The translations under genes and the position numbers were made by a program. From Thermoplasmata archaeon (GTDB lineage: Archaea > Thermoplasmatota > Thermoplasmata > Lutacidiplasmatales > UBA184), in contig JASHWW010000071.1 in NCBI GenBank assembly GCA_030043855.1, positions 1 through 33,683 of the forward strand: 33,683 nucleotides of DNA, read 5' to 3'. This document shows positions 9,943-27,615 of this stretch, in pieces (the first letter of the stretch is position 1; each line of letters starts with the position of its first letter). Under the pieces are notes generated by a model that saw nothing but the letters and a program-made list of their open reading frames with translations, had not been told where the DNA came from and did no database searches.

Positions 9943-9950
9943 ACCGGAGG

Positions 9951-10024
9951 TGCGGGCACCGGGATTTGAACCCGAGTTATAGGCTTGGCAAGCCTATGTG
10001 ATAACCAGACTACACTATGCCCGC
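9951..10024 (-). tRNA. tRNA-Gly(GCC), no intron, CCA not encoded
   Basis: Reverse complement GCGGGCA TA GTGTAGTCTGGTTATCAC A TAGGC TTGCCAA GCCTA TAAC TCGGG TTCAAAT CCCGG TGCCCGC A folds as a full cloverleaf with anticodon GCC and discriminator A. Confidence 0.97.
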
Positions 10025-14610: not shown

Positions 14611-15036
14611 ATGCCCCCGAATCCTCCGGCCCGGACGTTCTCCCAGCGCCTCCGGCACGGGTTCCGGGTGCACCGGGAGATCGTCTCGATCGTCATCTTC
14701 GCGATCGGGGTGTTCCTCAGCATCTTGGCTCTCGGGTGGGTCACGCCGCTCCAGACCGTCCCGCCGTTCCCCGCGATCAACGCGGTCACCGACACGCCGA
14801 ACGCGAACTACAATCTGGTCTTCATCGTCGTCGGCCCGATCGTCGCGATCGTCGGCGCGTACCTCGTCGGGGCGTACTACGTCGCCCGGCGGAAGTTCGA
14901 GCACCTGATGCTCACCAAGAGCAAGGCGGAGTTCCTGCGGAACATCCCCGAGCTCGAGGACCTGCTCTGGGACCTGACGCCCAACGACGAGATCCGGTAC
15001 GACGAGAAGCGGTCGGAGCTCCGCGTCCGCCGGTAG
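14611..15036 (+). CDS. Two-TM membrane protein resembling DUF3198 (Thermoplasmata-type)
   Basis: Two TM helices followed by KFEHLMLTKSKAEFLRNIPELEDL.W.L, recalled as the DUF3198 pattern. TTGATAAG box at 14580-14587. Confidence 0.7.
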   Translation: MPPNPPARTFSQRLRHGFRVHREIVSIVIFAIGVFLSILALGWVTPLQTVPPFPAINAVTDTPNANYNLVFIVVGPIVAIVGAYLVGAYYVARRKFEHLMLTKSKAEFLRNIPELEDLLWDLTPNDEIRYDEKRSELRVRR

Positions 15037-15082
15037 GCGCGCCGCGCGGCCGCGTTAAGTACCGTCCGCCGGTCGGCGCGGC

Positions 15083-15979
15083 GTGGCGACCGCCGGGGTC
15101 GACGGCCGGATCGAGGGGTTCCGGCTCCGCCGCCTGGAGAAGCCCGAGGAGTTCCGACAGGTCGAGGAGCTCCTCCAGGCAGCGTTCGGCACGGCCGCCC
15201 CCGGGGGGATGCCGACCTCCCTCCAGCGTGCGCTGCAGGACAACGGGGGCCTCGTCCTCGGCGCGTTCGCCGACATCTACCTCGCCGGGGCGGCCGTCTC
15301 GTTCCTCGGGTGGGACGGGACGACGCTCTACCACTACTCCCACCTCCTGATGGTCCGTCCGGAGTACCAGAACCACCACCTGGGGTTCCGGATGAAACTG
15401 TTCCAGCGCGAGGAGGTCACGAAACTCGGGCTCGCCGAGATCCGGTGGACGTTCGACCCGCTCCTGAGCCGCAACGCCTACCTGAACGTCCGCCGGCTCG
15501 GCAGCGTCCCCCGGAAGTATCTCCCCCACTACTACGGTCAGATGTCCGACGCGGCGAACCAGGGGCTCGAGACCGACCGCCTCCTGACCGCGTGGTCGAT
15601 CGCGTCCCCCGCCGTCGAGGCGCGCCTGACCTCCCCGGCCCCGTCCGCCGCCGACGACCGGGCACGATTCGAGCGGTCGTTCCGCATCGTGACGACCGAC
15701 CAGGGGGAGAGCGGCCTGCGAATCCCCACGGCGGTCGAAGAGCCGACCGGACCGAGCGCCCACCTCGAGATCCCGTTCGACTTCGCCGCCGTCCGGGAAC
15801 ACGAGCCGAAGTCCGTCCGGACCTGGCGACACGCGGTCCGCGACGCGTTCCGGGCCGCCTTCGACGCGGGCTACCGGGTCGACGACTTCGCCGTCGTCTC
15901 GACCGCCGCCCACGAGCGACGGAGTGTCTACTTCCTCGCGCCCGCCCCGCCGCCCGCCGGCGGGAGCCCGCCACCCTAG
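15083..15979 (+). CDS. GNAT acyltransferase of the type associated with NSAR/OSBS (putative D-amino acid N-succinyltransferase)
   Basis: GGLVLGAF, YSHLLMVRPEYQN..LGFRMKL.QRE, WTFDPL.SRNAYLN...LG, YYGQM.D..NQG..TDR...W, and LEIP.DF...R...WR...R..F. TTAAGT box at 15055-15060. Confidence 0.82.
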   Translation: MATAGVDGRIEGFRLRRLEKPEEFRQVEELLQAAFGTAAPGGMPTSLQRALQDNGGLVLGAFADIYLAGAAVSFLGWDGTTLYHYSHLLMVRPEYQNHHLGFRMKLFQREEVTKLGLAEIRWTFDPLLSRNAYLNVRRLGSVPRKYLPHYYGQMSDAANQGLETDRLLTAWSIASPAVEARLTSPAPSAADDRARFERSFRIVTTDQGESGLRIPTAVEEPTGPSAHLEIPFDFAAVREHEPKSVRTWRHAVRDAFRAAFDAGYRVDDFAVVSTAAHERRSVYFLAPAPPPAGGSPPP

Positions 15980-16027
15980 GGGAAGGGTATATCGCCCGTT
16001 CCCGGCCTCCGTCGGTCGGGTGGGGCC

Positions 16028-16930
16028 GTGCACGGCTCGGGACGCAACACCGTCCTCCTCGTGGCGCTGCTCGTCGTGGCGGTCGGGGCGGGCCTCGCCG
16101 CGACGATCCTGGCGACCGCTCCGTCGCACGCGCCGAACGCGGGTCCTTCGACCGAGCTGATCCTGCCGTTCTGGGTCGTCGTCCTTCCGATCCTCGGACT
16201 GTTCGTCGCCGGGATGGCCCTGATGATCGGGCAGCGGGCGCGGGGGACCGCCGCCTCGGTGCCGAATCCGATCGTGGTGGCGATCCTCGTCGGGATGCTC
16301 CTGTTGGCCGGGTTCGTCGTGGTCTCCCATTTCCTGGGCGGCGGAGGGATCCTGAGCGGGGGCGGGACCAGCACCCAGGCGAACTCGACCGTCAACTCCA
16401 CCCCGCCGGCCAACGGAACCCCCCTGCCCAACGGACCGGGTGGGGCGCTCGACCGGTGGTCGATCCCGCCGTGGGTCGGCGATCTTCTCCTGTTCGTGCT
16501 GGTCGGGGGGTTCCTGGCCGTCCTGTCGGGCGGTCTGCTCGCGAGCCGGCTGGCTTCCCCGGGCCGGCTCTCGCTCCGGCGACGGCGGTCGGGAGGCGCG
16601 ACCGCGGCCGCGGCCTCGGCATTGGCCGAGGCGCAGGTCGCCCTCGACGAGGGGGCCGACCCGCGGGCGACGATCCTGGTCCTGTACGGACAGCTGCTTT
16701 CCCGCCTCACCGCGATGATCGGGGACGTGGACGTGGTGACGCCGGAGGAGATCCGCAGTCAGCACCTGGTGCGCCTCGGAGTCGGGCCCCGCGACGCGAA
16801 CGAGCTGACCCGCCTGTTCGAGGAGGCCCGGTACTCGACCCACCCGATGGGCGCCGAGGCGGCCGACCGGGCGCAGCGAGCGATCGGCGGGGCCCTCGCC
16901 GACCTTCAGCGCCGGGCCCCGGCGGCATGA
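16028..16930 (+). CDS. DUF4129 domain membrane protein
   Basis: Four TM segments followed by TILVLYGQL...TPEEI...LTRLFEEARYSTHPM, the DUF4129 pattern. Confidence 0.8.
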   Translation: MHGSGRNTVLLVALLVVAVGAGLAATILATAPSHAPNAGPSTELILPFWVVVLPILGLFVAGMALMIGQRARGTAASVPNPIVVAILVGMLLLAGFVVVSHFLGGGGILSGGGTSTQANSTVNSTPPANGTPLPNGPGGALDRWSIPPWVGDLLLFVLVGGFLAVLSGGLLASRLASPGRLSLRRRRSGGATAAAASALAEAQVALDEGADPRATILVLYGQLLSRLTAMIGDVDVVTPEEIRSQHLVRLGVGPRDANELTRLFEEARYSTHPMGAEAADRAQRAIGGALADLQRRAPAA

Positions 16931-17355
16931 GCCTCTCCCGGTCGTTCGTCGCGTTGCTGCTCGTCGCCCTGGGGGCGGCCGCCGTAGCGATCTGGGCGGG
17001 CACGAATCTGACGATCGCCCTCCCGGCGGCCCTCCTGGCCCTGCTCGTCGCGGCGGCGATGGTCTACGACGGGTGGAGCCAAGGCGCGACGGCCGAGCGT
17101 GCCGTCTCGGGGCTCCCGACCGCAGTCTCCGGCGCCACGACGGACACGAAGTCCGCGTCGCTGCCCCCCCTCGACGGCAGTCGGTTCGACCGGGAGGAGG
17201 TCGTCCTGCTGCTCGACCAGGTCGAGCGGACGATCCGGGACCCGTCCCTTCCGAGCCATCGGTTGGAGGATCTCGACCGCCTCGCCACGCTGCCCCCGGA
17301 GCAGTTCCGCGACTACGTTCGCCGACGCGTCGAGGCGCTCGAGGCGGGGACGTGA
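16927..17355 (+). CDS. Two-TM hypothetical protein of the MoxR/DUF58 cluster
   Basis: ATGA overlap with the DUF4129 stop; MSLSRSFVALLLVALG... hydrophobic N-terminus; GTGA overlap with the next gene. Confidence 0.75.
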   Translation: MSLSRSFVALLLVALGAAAVAIWAGTNLTIALPAALLALLVAAAMVYDGWSQGATAERAVSGLPTAVSGATTDTKSASLPPLDGSRFDREEVVLLLDQVERTIRDPSLPSHRLEDLDRLATLPPEQFRDYVRRRVEALEAGT

Positions 17356-18647
17356 ACGCACCGGAGGTCCCGCCGAACCTCGTGTGGCGGCGTCGGACGT
17401 TGCTCCTCGTCGTCGTCGCGCTCGGGTTGTTCGTCGCGGGGGTCGTGCGTCGCACGCCCGTTCCGGTCTTTCTCGCCATCCCGTTGTTGGTGGCGCCCCT
17501 GGCCGCGGCGATCGCCGGCCCCCGTCGAACGATCCGGTCCGCGATCCGGTGGGAGGCGACCGGCTCGGGCCCGGACGTCCAGGTCGACCTCACCCTGACG
17601 TCGGATCCCCCGGCGCTGGCTCCGGACCTGGAGATCGTCGTCGCGCAGCCGCCCGGCCTCAAGCTCTCCGGCCCGTTCGAGACCCGGCGCGAGGCCGACG
17701 CGATCCGGGGCAACCTCCGCCTGACCGCCCCGGAGCCGACGATCGCGACGCTCGTTCCCCCGTCGGTGACCTGGCGGGACCCGCTCGGGGTCGTGGAACG
17801 TCCGGTCCGGGTCGACGGACGCCCGCTCCTTGTGGAGCGGTATCCGCCCGAGCTGCTCGAGATGGGAGCGGTCCGGCTCGAGCATACGCTCGCGGTCCCG
17901 GGCGAGACCCCGTCCCGGTTCATCGGGTCGAGCGGGGAGTTCTACGGCCTCCGGGAGGCCGCACCGGGGGATCCGTTGCGGCGCGTCAACTGGCGCGCCA
18001 GCGCGCGCGCCGGTCGCCTGCTCACCAACGAGTACCTCCTCGACCGGACCGGCGACGTCATCCTGCTCCTCGACGCCCGCCCGACCGGGCTCGGCGCGGC
18101 GTTGGACGGCCGCCTGCTCGGGCTGAGCCGAGCGGCGGCCCTCGGGATCACCGAGGCGTTCCTGCGGGAGAAGTCGCGGGTCGGCTTCGCGGCGTTCGGG
18201 GAGTTCCTCGAGGCCATCCCGCTGGGCGGGGGCCGGACCCATCGGGTCCGTCTCCGGGCCGCGATCCAGTCCACGGTCCGCTCGGCGACCGGCGGCCCCG
18301 CGGAACGGTGCGCCATCTCCATGCGGCGCTTCTTCCCGCTCGGCGTCACGACCATCGCGTTCACCTCGCTCGCCGAGGAGGAGTCGTTCGACCTCGTCCA
18401 TCACCTGCGACGGCGCGGGTACCCGGTCGCCGTGGTCAGCCCGTCCGCGCTTCCCGTGCTCTCCGGGGCACGGACGATGGCGTCCTCGGACGAACAGCTC
18501 CAGCGGCGGATCGCCCGTCTCGCCCGCCGGGCGCAGGTCGCCCGCGCGTGGCGGGACGGGCCGGTGCTGGACTGGGACGAGTACTGGTCGCTCGGCGGTC
18601 TCGGCGACGTTCTCCGGTGGACCGGCCAGCGGAGGCCGAATCGATGA
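17352..18647 (+). CDS. DUF58 domain protein (MoxR-associated, vWA-like)
   Basis: DPLG, GEFYGLREAAPGDPLRRVNWRASARAG.L.TNEY, and VILLLDAR. GTG 17352 overlaps the preceding stop. Confidence 0.88.
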   Translation: MNAPEVPPNLVWRRRTLLLVVVALGLFVAGVVRRTPVPVFLAIPLLVAPLAAAIAGPRRTIRSAIRWEATGSGPDVQVDLTLTSDPPALAPDLEIVVAQPPGLKLSGPFETRREADAIRGNLRLTAPEPTIATLVPPSVTWRDPLGVVERPVRVDGRPLLVERYPPELLEMGAVRLEHTLAVPGETPSRFIGSSGEFYGLREAAPGDPLRRVNWRASARAGRLLTNEYLLDRTGDVILLLDARPTGLGAALDGRLLGLSRAAALGITEAFLREKSRVGFAAFGEFLEAIPLGGGRTHRVRLRAAIQSTVRSATGGPAERCAISMRRFFPLGVTTIAFTSLAEEESFDLVHHLRRRGYPVAVVSPSALPVLSGARTMASSDEQLQRRIARLARRAQVARAWRDGPVLDWDEYWSLGGLGDVLRWTGQRRPNR

Positions 18648-19162
18648 AGTCCCCGTTCGTCCGGGCCCCAGTCGCCCGCGGGGCTGCATCGACCGTGGTG
18701 CTCGGCGCGTCGGTCGTCGCGCTCGCACTGGTCGGTGGCCTCGGGTTCGTCGGGGCCGCGGTCGGCGCGGGCTCGGTCGTGGCCGCGGCGATCGTGCGGC
18801 GGCTGCACGCCGCCGGAGCCCGGGAATATGCCGTCGGCGTCGCGCTCGTGGGCGCCGGGGGGATCGCCGTGCTGGGCACGATCGGGCCGCTCTCGGAGTT
18901 GCTCGCCGGCGCCGTCGGGGTCGCGTCCGTCGCGTGGCTGGCCGACGACCCGACCCGGCGGCCCGGGGCTCTCGGTCGCGCGGCCTCCTCGCTGTTGCTC
19001 GTCGCCGGGGCCGTCGTATTGGCCTGGGTGAGCGCGACCGCCCTGCCGAGCGGCGCGGCGCCGATCGGAGTCGCGGCGGTCCTGTTGATCGTGGTGCTCG
19101 CGGTCGCGGCCGTCCTGCTCGGTCGGCCGGCCTGGGTCGACCCCGCAGCGGCAACGTCTTGA
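18644..19162 (+). CDS. Small multi-pass membrane protein of the MoxR/DUF58 cluster
   Basis: ATGA overlap with the DUF58 stop; 172 aa, almost entirely hydrophobic. Confidence 0.75.
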   Translation: MKSPFVRAPVARGAASTVVLGASVVALALVGGLGFVGAAVGAGSVVAAAIVRRLHAAGAREYAVGVALVGAGGIAVLGTIGPLSELLAGAVGVASVAWLADDPTRRPGALGRAASSLLLVAGAVVLAWVSATALPSGAAPIGVAAVLLIVVLAVAAVLLGRPAWVDPAAATS

Positions 19163-19206
19163 ACCGGCGGCGACCATCCCGGTCCGACGTGGCCGACGGT
19201 CGCGTC

Positions 19207-19365
19207 CGGACGCCGACGAAGGGTCCCTCTCGACTCAACGCGGACGGGTCGTCCGCCGAGGATGACGTGAGGACAACCCCGGGGTCCGACATCCCCGGCC
19301 GGGGTCAGACCGCCGAGAGGGCGGACGCCTGCCGTGACGCGGATCGTTACGGCCGGGGCACAGCG
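19207..19365 (+). ncRNA. Two-hairpin archaeal box H/ACA pseudouridylation guide RNA
   Basis: HP1: P1 19207-19215/19280-19288, K-turn (GA 19232-33; bulge GAU 19261-63; GA 19264-65), ACA 19289-91. HP2: P1 CCCCGGCC 19293-300/GGCCGGGG 19351-58, K-turn (GA 19315-16; bulge CGU 19333-35; GA 19336-37), ACA 19360-62. Both ACA boxes are 14 nt from the upper stem. The HP2 pocket GGGUCA/GUUAC is complementary to conserved 23S helix 69. Confidence 0.85.
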
Positions 19366-19419
19366 ACCGCCGCGCCCTCCATATAGTAGCCGCCGCTCGG
19401 TCGGCGGCGGGGTCGGGCG

Positions 19420-20370
19420 GTGGATCCACAGACGGCTCGCACCTTCGCGGAGAAGGTCCGGGCGACCGTCCAGACCGCCGTGGTCGGGCGCGACGTCGCC
19501 GTCGACCAGGTCTTGACCGGGCTGCTCGCCGACGGCCACCTCCTGTTGGAGGATCTTCCCGGACTCGGCAAGACGCTGATGGCGAAATCGTTCGCCACCG
19601 CCCTCGGCCTGGGGTTCCAGCGCGTCCAGTTCACGGCCGACCTGCTCCCCCACGACATCACCGGCGGCGAGATCCTCGACCCGCGCAAGGGCGAGCTCAC
19701 GTTCCGCCCGGGGCCGCTGTTCACGAACCTCCTGCTCGCCGACGAGATCAACCGCGCCCCCCCGAAGGTGCAGTCCGCCCTGCTCGAGGCGATGCAGGAG
19801 TACCAGGTCACCAGCGAGCGGTCGACGTACCCGATCCCCCGCCCGTTCCTCGTCATTGCGACGGAGAACCCGATCGAGCTGGAAGGGACGTACCCGTTGC
19901 CGGAGGCGCAGGTCGACCGGTTCCTGCTCCGGCTCCGGGTCGGTTATCCGACGGTCGAGGAGGAGCGGACGATCCTGGAGCGCCGACGGGCGCGCAAGGA
20001 GGATGCGGTCTCCGTCGCGTCGGTGCTCGACGCACCGACGTTCCTCGAGCTGCAGCGGGCCGTGGAGGAGGTCGAGGTCGAGCCGTCGGTCGCCGGCTAC
20101 ATCGTGGACCTCGTCCGCGCGACCCGCGACGACGGGCGGGCCGAGGTCGGCGCCTCCCCGCGCGGGGCGCTCGCGCTCCAGAAGATCGCCCGGGCCCGCG
20201 CCCTCTTGCAGGGACGCGACTTCGTGCTCCCGGACGACGTGAAGGCGTTCGCCGAGCCGGCGCTCGCCCACCGCGTCCTGGTCAAGCCCGAGCCGTGGAT
20301 CCGCGGCGTCCGCGGCGACGCGATCGTCGCCGCCGCCCTCGAGCGCACGTCGGTCCCGAAGCTGGCCTGA
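19420..20370 (+). CDS. moxR: MoxR-family AAA+ ATPase
   Basis: GHLLLEDLPGLGKT, RVQFTADLLPHDITG, LLADEINRAPPKVQSALLEAMQE, NPIELEGTYPLPEAQVDRF, GASPRG. ATATAG box at 19381-19386. Confidence 0.95.
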   Translation: MDPQTARTFAEKVRATVQTAVVGRDVAVDQVLTGLLADGHLLLEDLPGLGKTLMAKSFATALGLGFQRVQFTADLLPHDITGGEILDPRKGELTFRPGPLFTNLLLADEINRAPPKVQSALLEAMQEYQVTSERSTYPIPRPFLVIATENPIELEGTYPLPEAQVDRFLLRLRVGYPTVEEERTILERRRARKEDAVSVASVLDAPTFLELQRAVEEVEVEPSVAGYIVDLVRATRDDGRAEVGASPRGALALQKIARARALLQGRDFVLPDDVKAFAEPALAHRVLVKPEPWIRGVRGDAIVAAALERTSVPKLA

Positions 20371-24686: not shown

Positions 24687-27615
24687 TTCCGTCGAGCTCC
24701 CAGCGGCGCACGTCGGGGAGCGACCCGAGGGACCCCTCCACGAGCTCGAGGGGGTCGGCGAGGAGGTCGCGGGCGAGCTCGGTGCCGTGGCTTCGCAGCG
24801 CGGCGAGCAGGCGGCCCGTCGCCCCCAGCCGCACGGCCACGCGGTCGGTGTACTGCAGGTGCAGGTCCTTGCGGGTCTGCTGCAGCCGGCGCGCGACCTC
24901 CCGGACCATCCCCTCGTCCCGAAGCTCCTCGGGCGGGTGGCGGGTCAGGGCCGCGACCGGCCGTCCGTCGACCTCGCGGACCGCCCACTCCTCGTCCCCG
25001 TAGCGGGAGCGGTCCTCCGCCGGGACGCGGGCGATCCGCCGGACGTTGAGCTCCTCGGCGACGAGCGCCTCCCCTTCCGCCCCGAGGGCCGCGAGACCGC
25101 CCGGTCCCGGGGCGAAGACGACGAGCTCGGGGAGCGGGATCCGCGACTTCACGCCCGCGCGTTGCCGAAGCTCCCGGCCGACCTCGACCAGCTCCCGTAC
25201 CTCCGCCATCGCGGCTTCGAGCGACGGGTCCCGGTCCGCGAGCGGGCCGGGCCACCCGGCCAGGTGGACCGAACCGACCGCGTCGCGGTAGGCGTGCCCG
25301 CCGACCTCCTGATGGACCCACTCGGCGGTGAACGGGAGCATCGGCGCCGCCGTCCGGGCGAGGCCGAGCAGGGCGTACGAGAGCGTCGCGTGGGCGGCGC
25401 GCCGGTCCTCGCCCCCGGTCTCCGACCAGAAGCGGGGACGCGAGCGACGGACGTACCACGTGGAGAGGTCGTCGACGAAGCCACGGACCGCCTCGGCGGC
25501 CCGACGGAGGTCCGCGGCGGAGAACCCGGCCTCGGCCTCGCGGCGGGTCGTCTCCAGCCGGGAGAGGATCCATCGGTCGAGGGCGGACGCGGCGATCGGG
25601 CGGTCGGGCGCGGCCGGCAGGTCGTCCGCGCGGGCGTTGGCGAGATGGAACGCGACGACGTTCGCGAGCGTCCCGAGCGTGCGGGCCGCCGTCCGCTGGA
25701 TCGTGACGTCGCCGATCCGCATCGGCTCCGTCCAGTCGACGGCGAGGAACGTCCACCGGACCGCGTCGCCCCCGAACTTCTCGAGGGTCGCCATCGGGTC
25801 GAGGACGTTCCCCTTCGACTTCGACATCTTGTGGCCGCCCTCGTCCAGCACCATCCCGTTGACGAGGCAGGTCCGGTAGGCGGGACGGTCGAACAGGAGG
25901 GTGGCGATCACCAGCAGCGAGTAGAACCAGCCGCGGGTCTGGTCGAGCCCTTCCGCGATGTAGTCGAGCGGTTGGGTCGGGTCGAACGGGCCGGGATCGA
26001 ACGGGTAGTGGAACCCCGCGAACGGAGCGCAGCCGCTGTCGTACCAGCCGTCGATCGTGTACGGCTCCCGCGTCGCCTCCCCGCCGCACGTGGCGCACCG
26101 GAGGACCATCCGGTCGACGGTGACCCGATGCGGGTCGAACGGGGTGGGGAGCGGAGCTCCCGCCCGCTCGGCGAGCTCCGCGAAGCTTCCCACGCACGTG
26201 GCGTGTCCGGCCGCGCAGATCCAGATCGGGAGCGGGGTGCCCCAGTACCGGTTCCGGGAGAGCGCCCAGTCCTTCGCTTCCGTCAGGAAGTTCCCGAACC
26301 GGCCGTCCCGCAGGTGCTCGGGCACCCAGTGGACGGTCGCGTTGTTCCGGACGAGCCGATCGGTCGCCCGGGAGGTCCGGACGAACCAGGAGTCGATCGC
26401 CCGGTAGAGGAGCGGCGTGTCGCACCGCCAGCAGAACGGGTAGGTGTGCCGGAGGGTGGCCGCATGGAACACACGACCCCGCTCGGTCAGGTCGCGCAGC
26501 AGGATCGGGTCCGCGACCTTGAACGATTTCCCCTGCACCAGCGGCACGCGGTCGGTGAAGACGCCGCGGCTGTCGAGCGGGTCGTAAACCCCGACCTTCT
26601 CGCGCGCCCCGATCCGCTGATCGTCCGGCCCGAAGCTCGGCGCAACGTGGACGAAGCCGGTCCCGTCCTCCGTCGTGACGAAGTCGTCCAGGACGATCCG
26701 GTACCGTCCGGGTCCGGGCCCCGGGGTGTCGAACGGCGGGCGGTACTCGAGCCCTGCCAGCGCGCGCCCGGGGAGTCGCTCCACGACGTCGGCGCCGCCG
26801 GGGAAGTACCGGGGCACGGCGGCCGACGCGAGCACCAGCTCGCCGCCGTCCTCCGACCGGACCACCGCGTACTCGACGTCGGCCTTCGCCGCGACCAGCA
26901 GGTTGGCCGGGAGCGTCCACGGCGTCGTCGTCCACACCAGGAGCTCGCGGCGGCGGGGATTCGGATCCGCGAGCGTGAACCGGACGGTGACCGACGGGTC
27001 GGTCGCCTCGCGGTATCCCTGAGCCACCTCGTGCGAGGAGAGCGGCGTCTCGCACCGCGGGCAGTACGGAAGGACGTAGTGGCCCTTCTCGAGCAGTCCG
27101 CGGTCGAACAGCGTCTTCAGCGACCACCAGACGCTCTCGATGTACGGCGCGTCCATGGTCCGGTAGGCGTGGTCGTAATCGAGCCAGTAGCCGAGCCGTC
27201 GGCTCATCTCCCGCCAGACCGCGGCGACCTCGAGCACCGAGGCCCGGCAGGCGTCGCAGAACCGGTCGACGCCGTACGCTTCGATCTCCTTCTTCGACTT
27301 GACCCCGAGCCGCTTCTCGATCTCGAGCTCGACCGGGAGCCCGTGACAATCCCACCCGGCGATCGAGCTGACGATCCGCTCGCCGCGCATCCGGTGGTAG
27401 CGAAGTTCGGTATCCTTGAGCAGCCGCGAGATCAGGTGCCCCATGTGGGGCGCGCCGTTCGCCGTCGGCGGTCCCTCGGTGAACCGGAACGTCGCCCCGT
27501 CCGACGCACCCGCCACGGAGCGACCCGGGACCCCCGTCGCCTCCCAGTAGGCGAGCACGCGGGCCTGTCGGCTCGCGCCCGACGGCGTGCCCGGCTCTCC
27601 TTCCTCGGCGGCCAC
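24649..27615 (-). CDS. ileS: Isoleucine--tRNA ligase (type 2, archaeal/eukaryote-like)
   Basis: EGPPTANG.PHMGH (HIGH), GWDCHGLPVE, WTTTPWTLP, GTGFVH.AP, DWALSRNRYWGTPLP, EGLDQTRGWFYSL, KMSKSKGN. TTTTAT box (minus, 27647-27642) 26 nt before the GTG. Confidence 0.97.
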   Translation of the reverse strand: MAAEEGEPGTPSGASRQARVLAYWEATGVPGRSVAGASDGATFRFTEGPPTANGAPHMGHLISRLLKDTELRYHRMRGERIVSSIAGWDCHGLPVELEIEKRLGVKSKKEIEAYGVDRFCDACRASVLEVAAVWREMSRRLGYWLDYDHAYRTMDAPYIESVWWSLKTLFDRGLLEKGHYVLPYCPRCETPLSSHEVAQGYREATDPSVTVRFTLADPNPRRRELLVWTTTPWTLPANLLVAAKADVEYAVVRSEDGGELVLASAAVPRYFPGGADVVERLPGRALAGLEYRPPFDTPGPGPGRYRIVLDDFVTTEDGTGFVHVAPSFGPDDQRIGAREKVGVYDPLDSRGVFTDRVPLVQGKSFKVADPILLRDLTERGRVFHAATLRHTYPFCWRCDTPLLYRAIDSWFVRTSRATDRLVRNNATVHWVPEHLRDGRFGNFLTEAKDWALSRNRYWGTPLPIWICAAGHATCVGSFAELAERAGAPLPTPFDPHRVTVDRMVLRCATCGGEATREPYTIDGWYDSGCAPFAGFHYPFDPGPFDPTQPLDYIAEGLDQTRGWFYSLLVIATLLFDRPAYRTCLVNGMVLDEGGHKMSKSKGNVLDPMATLEKFGGDAVRWTFLAVDWTEPMRIGDVTIQRTAARTLGTLANVVAFHLANARADDLPAAPDRPIAASALDRWILSRLETTRREAEAGFSAADLRRAAEAVRGFVDDLSTWYVRRSRPRFWSETGGEDRRAAHATLSYALLGLARTAAPMLPFTAEWVHQEVGGHAYRDAVGSVHLAGWPGPLADRDPSLEAAMAEVRELVEVGRELRQRAGVKSRIPLPELVVFAPGPGGLAALGAEGEALVAEELNVRRIARVPAEDRSRYGDEEWAVREVDGRPVAALTRHPPEELRDEGMVREVARRLQQTRKDLHLQYTDRVAVRLGATGRLLAALRSHGTELARDLLADPLELVEGSLGSLPDVRRWELDGTSFEAVVAPRTD

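Follow-up and report, generated by a model that had tools for sequence, protein, structure and literature searches.

The 257-nt spacer upstream of a moxR-type gene in an uncultured Thermoplasmata archaeon raises the question of whether it holds an RNA gene of its own and, if so, what that RNA does. The spacer lies in contig JASHWW010000071.1 of assembly GCA_030043855.1; the whole stretch analysed, positions 1 to 33,683, is referred to here as the window. An initial annotation of this DNA had proposed that the spacer contains a hidden two-hairpin box H/ACA guide RNA whose second hairpin targets helix 69 of 23S rRNA. According to our analysis, positions 19207-19362 of the plus strand very probably encode a ~160-nt archaeal box H/ACA guide small RNA (sRNA), consisting of two adjacent hairpins with helix 69 and the A-loop as predicted targets, and orthologous to HgcG and sR-h45. 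We infer that this RNA is transcribed, that it assembles into a ribonucleoprotein (RNP) and that it guides the formation of pseudouridine at U1915 and at U2555 or U2554 (E. coli numbering).

A conserved two-hairpin RNA

A reading of the plus strand located every feature of the two-hairpin H/ACA layout that had been claimed, at the coordinates collected in Table 1. Each hairpin carries the sequence motif of a kink-turn (K-turn), comprising a 3-nt bulge ending in U, tandem G.A pairs and then C.C, as described initially, and each motif is a predicted L7Ae site. The 14-nt counts that had been given before the two ACA boxes (19275-88 and 19346-59) were right as counted. Our own spacings are 19274 + 15 = 19289 for hairpin 1 and 19346 + 14 = 19360 for hairpin 2, and both agree with the spacing of about 14-16 nt expected of archaeal H/ACA RNAs. 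One boundary was revised. While GGGUCA (19302-07) stood as a guide strand of hairpin 2, the opposite strand was trimmed to GUUA (19346-49): C19350 was moved from the guide to the lower stem because its pair with G19301 is replaced by C-G in three of 20 same-genus sequences (alignment columns 108/161). At the top of the same pocket, closure by pairing of G19308 with C19345 and of A19309 with U19344 is possible.

Table 1. Predicted features of the RNA and of its neighbourhood (window coordinates).
Feature	Position	Strand	Remarks
Two-hairpin box H/ACA guide sRNA gene, whole	19207-19362	+	First base of stem 1 to last A of second ACA; predicted ends
Hairpin 1 lower stem, 5' strand	19207-19215	+	Partner 19280-19288; 9 bp, one G.G mismatch in own genome
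Hairpin 1 pocket, 5' guide strand (ACGAAGGGUC)	19216-19225	+	GGGU predicted to pair with GCCC of the 23S A-loop
Hairpin 1 upper stem (P2), 5' strand	19226-19231	+	Partner 19267-19272
Hairpin 1 K-turn, non-bulged strand G-A	19232-19233	+	Faces G19264-A19265
Hairpin 1 apical part	19234-19260	+	K-turn canonical stem 19234-36/19258-60; apical stem-loop 19240-46/19250-56
Hairpin 1 K-turn, bulged strand	19261-19266	+	Bulge GAU 19261-63, sheared G-A, then C19266 opposite C19231
Hairpin 1 upper stem, 3' strand	19267-19272	+	Partner 19226-19231
Hairpin 1 pocket, 3' guide strand ACAACCC	19273-19279	+	Predicted to pair with GGGUUG(U) of the A-loop
Hairpin 1 lower stem, 3' strand	19280-19288	+	Partner 19207-19215
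First ACA box, internal, H-box position	19289-19291	+	Single base 19292 between box and hairpin 2
Hairpin 2 lower stem, 5' strand	19293-19301	+	Partner 19350-19358; 9 perfect bp
Hairpin 2 pocket, 5' guide strand GGGUCA(GA)	19302-19309	+	GGGUCA 19302-07 predicted to pair with UGACCC of helix 69
Hairpin 2 upper stem, 5' strand	19310-19313	+	Partner 19339-19342
Hairpin 2 K-turn, non-bulged strand C, G, A	19314-19316	+	G19315/A19316 opposite A19337/G19336
Hairpin 2 apical stem-loop (K-turn canonical stem)	19317-19332	+	Covariation
Hairpin 2 K-turn, bulged strand	19333-19338	+	Bulge CGU 19333-35, sheared G-A, then C19338 (C19338.C19314)
Hairpin 2 upper stem, 3' strand	19339-19342	+	Partner 19310-19313
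Hairpin 2 pocket, 3' guide strand (AUC)GUUA	19343-19349	+	GUUA 19346-49 predicted to pair with UAAC of helix 69
Hairpin 2 lower stem, 3' strand	19350-19358	+	Partner 19293-19301; then one unpaired C
Terminal ACA box	19360-19362	+	AUA in some relatives; conservation stops here; mean identity 0.88-0.94
DUF4129 gene	16028-16930	+	Upstream; codon-position GC signal
DUF58 gene	17073-18647	+	Pfam PF01882, 32.2 bits vs cut-off 23.4; codon-position GC 0.78/0.59/0.85
Possible short ORF between DUF58 gene and RNA	18644-19162	+	Stop 19160-19162; GC at third codon position 0.93 in 18800-19100 in frame
AT-rich CATATAGTAG box	19381-19390	+	Likely TATA element of moxR
moxR-type AAA+ ATPase gene	19420-20370	+	Downstream; Pfam AAA_3 202 bits and AAA_lid_2

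The boundaries of the proposed RNA are those of a conserved block. In blastn searches, the 257-nt spacer had a match in 24 of 24 other genomes of the same genus and only a weak one beyond it. The block conserved within the genus starts at ~19202-19213 and ends at 19362-19365, and identity collapses after the second ACA. We then used a covariance model, R1, built from 20 same-genus sequences with the structure drawn by hand. On the window, R1 matched 19205-19365 with 182.7 bits. It yielded one full-length match per genome in 58 of the 61 genomes of the order (10/10 genera, three families), and one full-length match in 86 of the 121 genomes of the class Thermoplasmata (46/57 genera). Three Thermoplasmata families were without a match (0/3, 0/10 and 0/2 genomes); the strict filters, which were applied to sets of more than 40 genomes, may lose weak matches, so these blanks do not prove absence.

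The stems are maintained by covariation. In a MAFFT-based alignment of the 20 same-genus sequences, 97.6% of the pair cells were standard and seven pairs had changed on both sides. In 500 shuffles, the observed paired fraction, covariation score and number of cells with changes on both sides were never reached; one shuffle attained the number of pairs changed on both sides, and 49 attained that of further pair types. A second alignment comprised 37 sequences from three families of the order with GC contents of 42-76%. Here 94.2% of cells were paired, as compared to 34-48% when the 3' partners were slid by 1-3 columns; compensatory changes occurred in 28 of 42 base pairs, and 0/500 shuffles reached any of five measures. 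This alignment was fitted to R1, which favours the structure and counts against taking these figures at face value. Given the effect size and the earlier MAFFT-based count, we argue that the covariation is real. Stem covariation, which the initial annotation had named as a check, was thus found both within the genus and across the order.

The changes were distributed over both hairpins. In the 37-sequence alignment, the lower stems of hairpins 1 and 2 each had compensatory changes in six of nine pairs, with 95.4% and 96.6% of cells paired, respectively. The upper stem of hairpin 1 was 94.4% paired, with a compensatory change in two of five pairs; that of hairpin 2 had such changes in all four pairs, yet 83.1% of its cells were paired. 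In the apical parts, compensatory pairs were found at five of seven positions of the hairpin 1 stem, while helices 7-8 of hairpin 2 were 95.8-100% paired and three of the four pairs of helix 8 showed compensation. Within the genus, the pair U19235-A19259 of the hairpin 1 K-turn stem has become C-G in four of 20 sequences.

The alignment also establishes the strand. G.U pairs accounted for 107 of 1484 pair cells (summed over the 37-sequence per-pair table), and the best R1 match on the minus strand scored 26 bits. Because the G.U cells would be mismatches on the other strand, and because the minus-strand match is so low, the RNA was assigned to the plus strand.

By contrast to the stems, which vary together with the apical loops, the best-conserved columns were the pocket cores, the G.A/A.G pairs and the ACA boxes. 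The mean identity of CAACCC, in the 3' pocket strand of hairpin 1, was 1.00 in the order and 0.96 in the class; the corresponding values were 0.94 and 0.90 for GGGU in its 5' strand, 0.90 and 0.95 for GGGUCAG in the 5' strand of hairpin 2, and 0.95 and 0.98 for GUUA in the 3' strand. The GA/GA columns had identities of 0.95 (order) in hairpin 1 and 0.98-0.99 in hairpin 2; at class level the hairpin 1 columns, poorly aligned there, had 0.73. U19263, G19264 and A19265 of hairpin 1 were invariant in the 20 same-genus sequences, and U19335, G19336 and A19337 of hairpin 2 were invariant in the same-genus relatives. Positions 19314 and 19338, the partners of the C.C, varied freely among these relatives, as expected of a non-Watson-Crick position. 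In the first ACA box, the outer A residues were invariant and the middle base was C or U in the same-genus relatives (mean identity 0.92-0.95). Conserved unpaired pockets are the pattern expected if they must pair with an invariant partner.

Predicted targets in 23S rRNA

The candidate partner of hairpin 2 is helix 69. The 13 Thermoplasmata 23S genes that were read represent the same genus, further genera, two more families of the order and three families from elsewhere in the class; all have GGGGGUAACUAUGACCCUC at this helix, in agreement with the sequence that the initial annotation had given. When a 23S sequence from the same genus was aligned by MAFFT to rrlH of E. coli K-12, the U flanked by UAAC and UGACCC fell on E. 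coli U1915. Pairing of GUUA(C) with (G)UAAC and of GGGUCA with UGACCC gives 11 Watson-Crick pairs in the relatives' 23S and leaves U1915 unpaired, as had been claimed. Among all uridines of the 16S and 23S rRNAs of a same-genus relative, U1915 was the top site for hairpin 2, and the next best had 9 pairs. Since pairing in the pocket can extend as far as U1917, U1915-A1916 alone remain free; U1917 would be reached only by an alternative, looser UNUN pairing as in Haloferax.

The statistics of this match temper the assignment. The hairpin 2 score was reached by 26 of 200 shuffled rRNAs and by 56 of 300 shuffled guides (19%). With a loose pocket that included upper-stem bases, helix 69 was the top site for 11 of 53 guide sequences; with a restricted pocket it was the top site in 51 of the 53, a definition picked after the target was known. 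The pairing statistic is therefore modest, and its weight comes from the coincidence of the site with the proven target of a homologous motif, described below. A first scan with tight offsets and with upper-stem bases in the pocket had missed helix 69; the offsets were then widened. In one of the relatives, G027, the 23S gene (L159) is ~85 nt longer than in the others and diverges right after GACCCUCUUAA, past helix 69. The extra length may be an rRNA intron or insertion.

The pocket of hairpin 1 fits the A-loop (helix 92). In a same-genus relative, GGGUUGU paired with ACAACCC and GCCC with GGGU, giving 11 pairs with U2555-C2556 free, and this was the top site in 16S and 23S rRNA. The score was reached by three of 200 shuffled rRNAs and by 28 of 300 shuffled guides (9%); in view of the latter, the match is by itself modestly unusual, and its limited weight is a further point on the negative side. 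Among the 53 guide sequences, the A-loop was the best hairpin 1 site in 51 (45 at U2555 and six at U2554). In other families, the 5' strand of hairpin 1 is AAUGGGU or longer, which extends the pairing with GCCCAUU.. to 13-16 pairs. All 12 Thermoplasmata 23S genes that were read share one A-loop sequence. Lineages differ at position 19273 (A, C or U). If A19273 is unpaired, U2554 may be unpaired as well, and the n+15 rule (19274 + 15 = 19289) would then give U2554. To our knowledge, no pseudouridine has been established experimentally at this A-loop position in archaea, and a literature search for one found none.

The principal alternative concerns this hairpin only: the RNA would be an H/ACA guide, and hairpin 1 would target E. 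coli U2586 in the peptidyl-transferase centre (Haloferax 2605), as stem-loop 1 (SL1) of sR-h45 does. Hairpin 1 aligns to motif 2 of HgcG, which Grosjean et al. take to be homologous to the hairpin that serves the U2586-equivalent site in haloarchaea (PMC2584109). The target of motif 2 has itself been disputed. As reported by Muller et al., Tang et al. originally proposed that motif 2 of Afu-4 targets A. fulgidus 2601, equivalent to P. abyssi 2647; in their account, Muller et al. reject this target for Afu4 and Pf7 and argue that the U2586 equivalent is the true one (PMC2377435). By an offset of 92, P. abyssi 2647 would be E. coli 2555, assuming no indel in P. abyssi. This offset was used because P. 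abyssi 2678 is given as H. marismortui 2621 (PMC2377435) and 2621 as E. coli 2586 (PMC2584109).

The AACCC of the 3' strand can also pair with the GGGUU that precedes U2586. In same-genus 23S, however, this site allows 8 pairs with three unpaired target bases, as compared to 11 pairs for the A-loop, and in the order of the window the base after U-A is C rather than G, which loses the pair with C19225. The position of U2586 itself is C in three of the 12 Thermoplasmata 23S genes (G042/L161, G028/L162 and G096/L185), in genomes that keep hairpin 1. Moreover, the AAUGGGU strand of the other families extends the A-loop pairing and not that with U2586. U2586 had been considered as the main hairpin 1 target by analogy with Haloferax and was rejected on the weaker pairing and the C at the site in 3/12 23S genes. 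We consider it an improbable target, although one that deserves to be kept in mind. The A-loop, at U2555 or U2554, is the most likely target as judged from pairing. The initial annotation had pointed to the Haloferax sites in helix 69 and the peptidyl-transferase centre; the former fits, while hairpin 1 fits the A-loop and fits U2586 poorly. Nearby, most of the 12 Thermoplasmata 23S genes have C or U in place of G at base 2588.

The established mechanism of the family suggests how the RNA would act. In each hairpin, the K-turn would be bound by L7Ae, and the lower stem and ACA by Cbf5-Nop10(-Gar1). The two pocket strands would pair with the 23S rRNA segments that flank an unpaired U-N, and Cbf5 would isomerise the unpaired U to pseudouridine. 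In hairpin 2, GGGUCA / GUUA would pair with UAAC-UA-UGACCC of helix 69 and expose U1915. In hairpin 1, ..AAGGGU / (A)CAACCC would pair with GGGUUG(U)-U(U)C-GCCC of the A-loop and expose U2555, or U2554 without the A19273 pair.

Relationship to HgcG/Pab40 and other guides

At Rfam gathering thresholds, a tRNA was the sole match in the window, in keeping with the initial claim that standard annotation would miss the RNA. Under relaxed settings, hairpin 2 (19289-19359) aligned to positions 197-268 of the 276 of HgcG/Pab40 (RF00064) with 20.2 bits (E 1e-3), and the lower stem, both pocket strands and the K-turn were in register. At seven loci of other Thermoplasmata families, the alignment extended over the whole HgcG model (1-276) and scored 40.7-67 bits (E 5e-8 to 4e-16); motif 2 was matched by hairpin 1 and motif 3 by hairpin 2. 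At the same-genus loci, HgcG aligned from position 53-58 within ~180 nt, or at motif 3 only. From this coverage, which starts at 53-58 or 197, we took the RNA in the order of the window to have two hairpins and to lack motif 1. All HgcG scores lie below the gathering score of 77, and for this reason the RNA escapes routine annotation.

In other orders of the class, the homologous RNA has a third H/ACA hairpin, corresponding to motif 1 and with its own ACA, directly upstream, as seen in the two loci whose alignments were read (L166:1387-1500 and L168:1654-1766, both minus strand); similar loci occur in other families. Adjoining the H/ACA RNA in the first of these is a weak C/D-box match (L166:1312-1375, minus strand; sR38, 21.7 bits, E 0.51), which is probably due to chance.

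By sequence comparison, the RNA appears to be the Thermoplasmata orthologue of HgcG/Pab40/Pf7/Afu-4 and of the haloarchaeal sR-h45, and the order of the window would have lost, or never had, the first of the family's three hairpins. As for the RNAs of Thermococcales and Archaeoglobus, hairpin 2 shares with motif 3 the lower stem, the GGGU.A / GUUA pocket and the K-turn. Pab40 motif 3 guides 23S U2016, in stem-loop 69 of P. abyssi, in vitro (Muller et al., PMC2377435), so that the last motif has a helix-69 uridine as its target in that system and as its predicted target here. The hairpins are directly adjacent, as described for Thermococcales (PMC2584109). The two differ in the number of motifs, which is three in HgcG/Pab40 and in other Thermoplasmata families and two in the order of the window. 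They also differ in GC content, which is 73% here, and in the predicted A-loop target of the motif-2 homologue, of the type that Muller et al. reject for Afu4 and Pf7.

The Haloferax RNA sR-h45 is the double-hairpin guide named in the initial annotation. Gupta and colleagues proved that its SL1 makes pseudouridine 2605 and that its SL2 makes 1940 and 1942, the equivalents of E. coli 1915 and 1917 (PMC7075261). Both RNAs have two guide stem-loops, the 3' one being for helix 69, and each stem-loop has its own K-turn and ANA/ACA box (PMC7075261). The two haloarchaeal hairpins are given as homologues of Pf7 stems II and III, and haloarchaea as having no stem I (PMC2584109); the RNA studied here likewise has no homologue of the first Pf7 hairpin. 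As described for Haloferax (PMC7075261), sR-h45 has a 56-nt linker, which may form a pseudoknot, and an H box AUAGCU, whereas a single base (19292) separates ACA and hairpin 2 here; its SL2 leaves UNUN unpaired, whereas only U1915-A1916 would be free here; and its SL1 guides the U2586 equivalent, whereas the A-loop fits better here. The proposal that the RNA is a functional counterpart of the Haloferax guide is thus borne out as membership of a homologous family. It is, however, class-wide and not peculiar to this locus, and less new than had been assumed.

Eukaryotic H/ACA RNAs, among them yeast snR191 and human U19, guide the same helix-69 uridines (PMC7075261). The RNA described here also has a eukaryotic parallel at its other predicted target. 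In the yeast A-loop, a pseudouridine at position 2923, with snR10 as its guide, lies next to Um2921/Gm2922. Eukaryotic H/ACA guides have a hairpin-hinge-hairpin-tail arrangement with H and ACA boxes, lack the K-turn and use Nhp2 instead of L7Ae. The equivalences of Um2921/Gm2922 in the yeast A-loop are given in PMC2584109. A search of the literature on H/ACA RNAs in Thermoplasma/Thermoplasmata found nothing relevant; the slash in the search term hampers such a search, and the negative is weak.

Genomic context, host and significance

A different explanation is suggested by the position of the RNA. It could be a conserved structured RNA of another role, such as a moxR leader or cis-regulatory element or an element in the 3' untranslated region of the upstream gene, with a superficial likeness to H/ACA RNAs. 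On the same strand as its neighbours, the RNA begins 45 nt past the stop of an open reading frame (ORF) and ends 58 nt short of moxR; it is flanked by a DUF58 gene and moxR, as initially annotated and as confirmed by Pfam matches. Among the 37 Thermoplasmata loci with a MoxR of 69% identity or more, 36 have it 50-90 nt upstream of moxR, and in the window family the RNA lacks an obvious promoter of its own. Outside the genus the association dissolves: at 29 of 36 loci from other genera and families, moxR is absent within 1.5 kb, and for this reason we do not regard the RNA as a moxR leader. In lower-GC relatives, a TATA-like box lies ~22-30 nt before hairpin 1 and an oligo-T run follows right after ACA, an arrangement that fits an independent small gene. 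The facts that the unpaired pockets, the G.A pairs and the ACA boxes are the best-conserved bases and that the full HgcG model aligns in other families also speak for a guide, and another role seems very unlikely. In the window family, the RNA may be co-transcribed with the upstream gene and then processed. A conserved ..CAACG.TTTAG/TCTTGA.. box ~50 nt upstream, considered as a promoter, is more simply the end of the upstream ORF.

The sole one of the 37 close moxR loci without an R1 match upstream of moxR is L051 (JASIDM010000046.1 region). Among nine other moxR sources (six distant archaeal and three bacterial), none had an R1 match. In relatives L013, L006, L021 and L142, the RNA is followed by a CATATA box, similar to the AT-rich box before moxR, and then by the next gene. 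The closest moxR loci belong to metagenome-assembled genomes of uncultured soil and peat Thermoplasmata archaeon, including UBA184.

Upstream of the RNA, the codon-position signal supports genes at 15083-15979, 16028-16930 (DUF4129) and 17073-18647 (DUF58), all on the plus strand. The possible short ORF at 18644-19162 had no Pfam match and no tblastn match in 36 related loci, and its reality is uncertain. Overlapping ORFs of 1003 aa (minus), 687 aa (plus) and 659 aa (minus) in 14912-19292 have no Pfam match and flat codon-position GC, and look like artefacts of the 72% GC. The window also contains genes for tRNA-Gly(GCC) (9949-10024, minus) and tRNA-Arg(CCG) (25980-26057, minus). In same-genus relatives, the 16S and 23S genes lie far apart on one contig (in G010, 23S at C1:59393-62330 and 16S at C1:1342642-1344111); an unlinked arrangement has been described for Thermoplasma (PMC3608112).

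The host genome is archaeal. The window is contig C117 of its own assembly, which comprises 1.37 Mb in 200 contigs and is estimated to be 64% complete. Cbf5 was identified in this assembly (TIGR00425, 276.9 bits, above the cut-off of 238.15, which only the four archaeal control genomes pass), and an L7Ae gene was found as well. Of the two proteins that the initial annotation had expected, cbf5 was thus found at home.

Several observations pull the other way. Nop10, the second of those proteins, was not found in the 64%-complete assembly, although it was in four of five relatives searched, including 3/3 of the same genus. Gar1 was weakly seen in two of the five, one above the cut-off, by a search that detects three of four archaeal controls. 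A 23S gene was not found in the host assembly either, and the targets were read from relatives. The HgcG score of 20.2 bits in the window is below the gathering score, as is that of the best relative (67 bits over 1-276). No recognisable TATA box was found in the 45 nt before hairpin 1 in the window family. Among the sequencing runs listed with the stretch, 20 of 20 are DNA, from peat, soil, wetland and wastewater metagenomes. Finally, the folding energy of 19200-19370 on the plus strand was ordinary for its composition (z -0.42; 68 of 200 shuffles folded at least equally well), as was that of the minus strand (z -0.50). Because of this ordinary energy and of the GC content, ~72% in the window and 73% in the RNA, the sequence motifs are weak evidence on their own.

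Chance is ruled out by conservation and covariation, and not by energy: that the hairpins arose by chance in GC-rich DNA, or are part of a coding ORF such as 18934-19386 (+), is barely conceivable in spite of the folding z and of the many long spurious ORFs over the region, since a single copy is kept across an archaeal class with compensatory stem changes, relatives differ by 1-2 nt indels, and the codon-position GC of that ORF is flat (0.79/0.74/0.72) as compared to ~0.95 at position 3 in the real neighbours.

Overall, this is not a new kind of system. It is a previously unannotated, sub-threshold addition to a known family, in a two-hairpin form, and its modest novelty lies in the likely A-loop target of the 5' hairpin. 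On balance, and with the scales tipping only slightly, we favour the view that hairpin 1, homologous to motif 2 of Pab40/Afu-4 and to SL1 of Haloferax, directs pseudouridylation of the A-loop in Thermoplasmata (U2555/U2554, beside the conserved Um2552/Gm2553) and not of U2586. The comparative data therefore bear on the old dispute over the target of the middle hairpin, A-loop or U2586. The finding adds a well-supported H/ACA guide gene to an uncultured soil and peat Thermoplasmata lineage in which standard Rfam annotation finds none, and R1 can be used to annotate the RNA in Thermoplasmata genomes. The HgcG/Pab40/Afu-4/sR-h45 guide is kept across most of the class, in two- and three-hairpin forms. 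The pseudouridines predicted here lie in the helix-69 bridge and in the A-loop, both of them functional centres of the 50S subunit. If the A-loop assignment is true, one ancestral guide hairpin would have had two alternative targets sharing GGGUU, on which different lineages settled differently, and archaea would have an RNA-guided A-loop pseudouridine as eukaryotes do.

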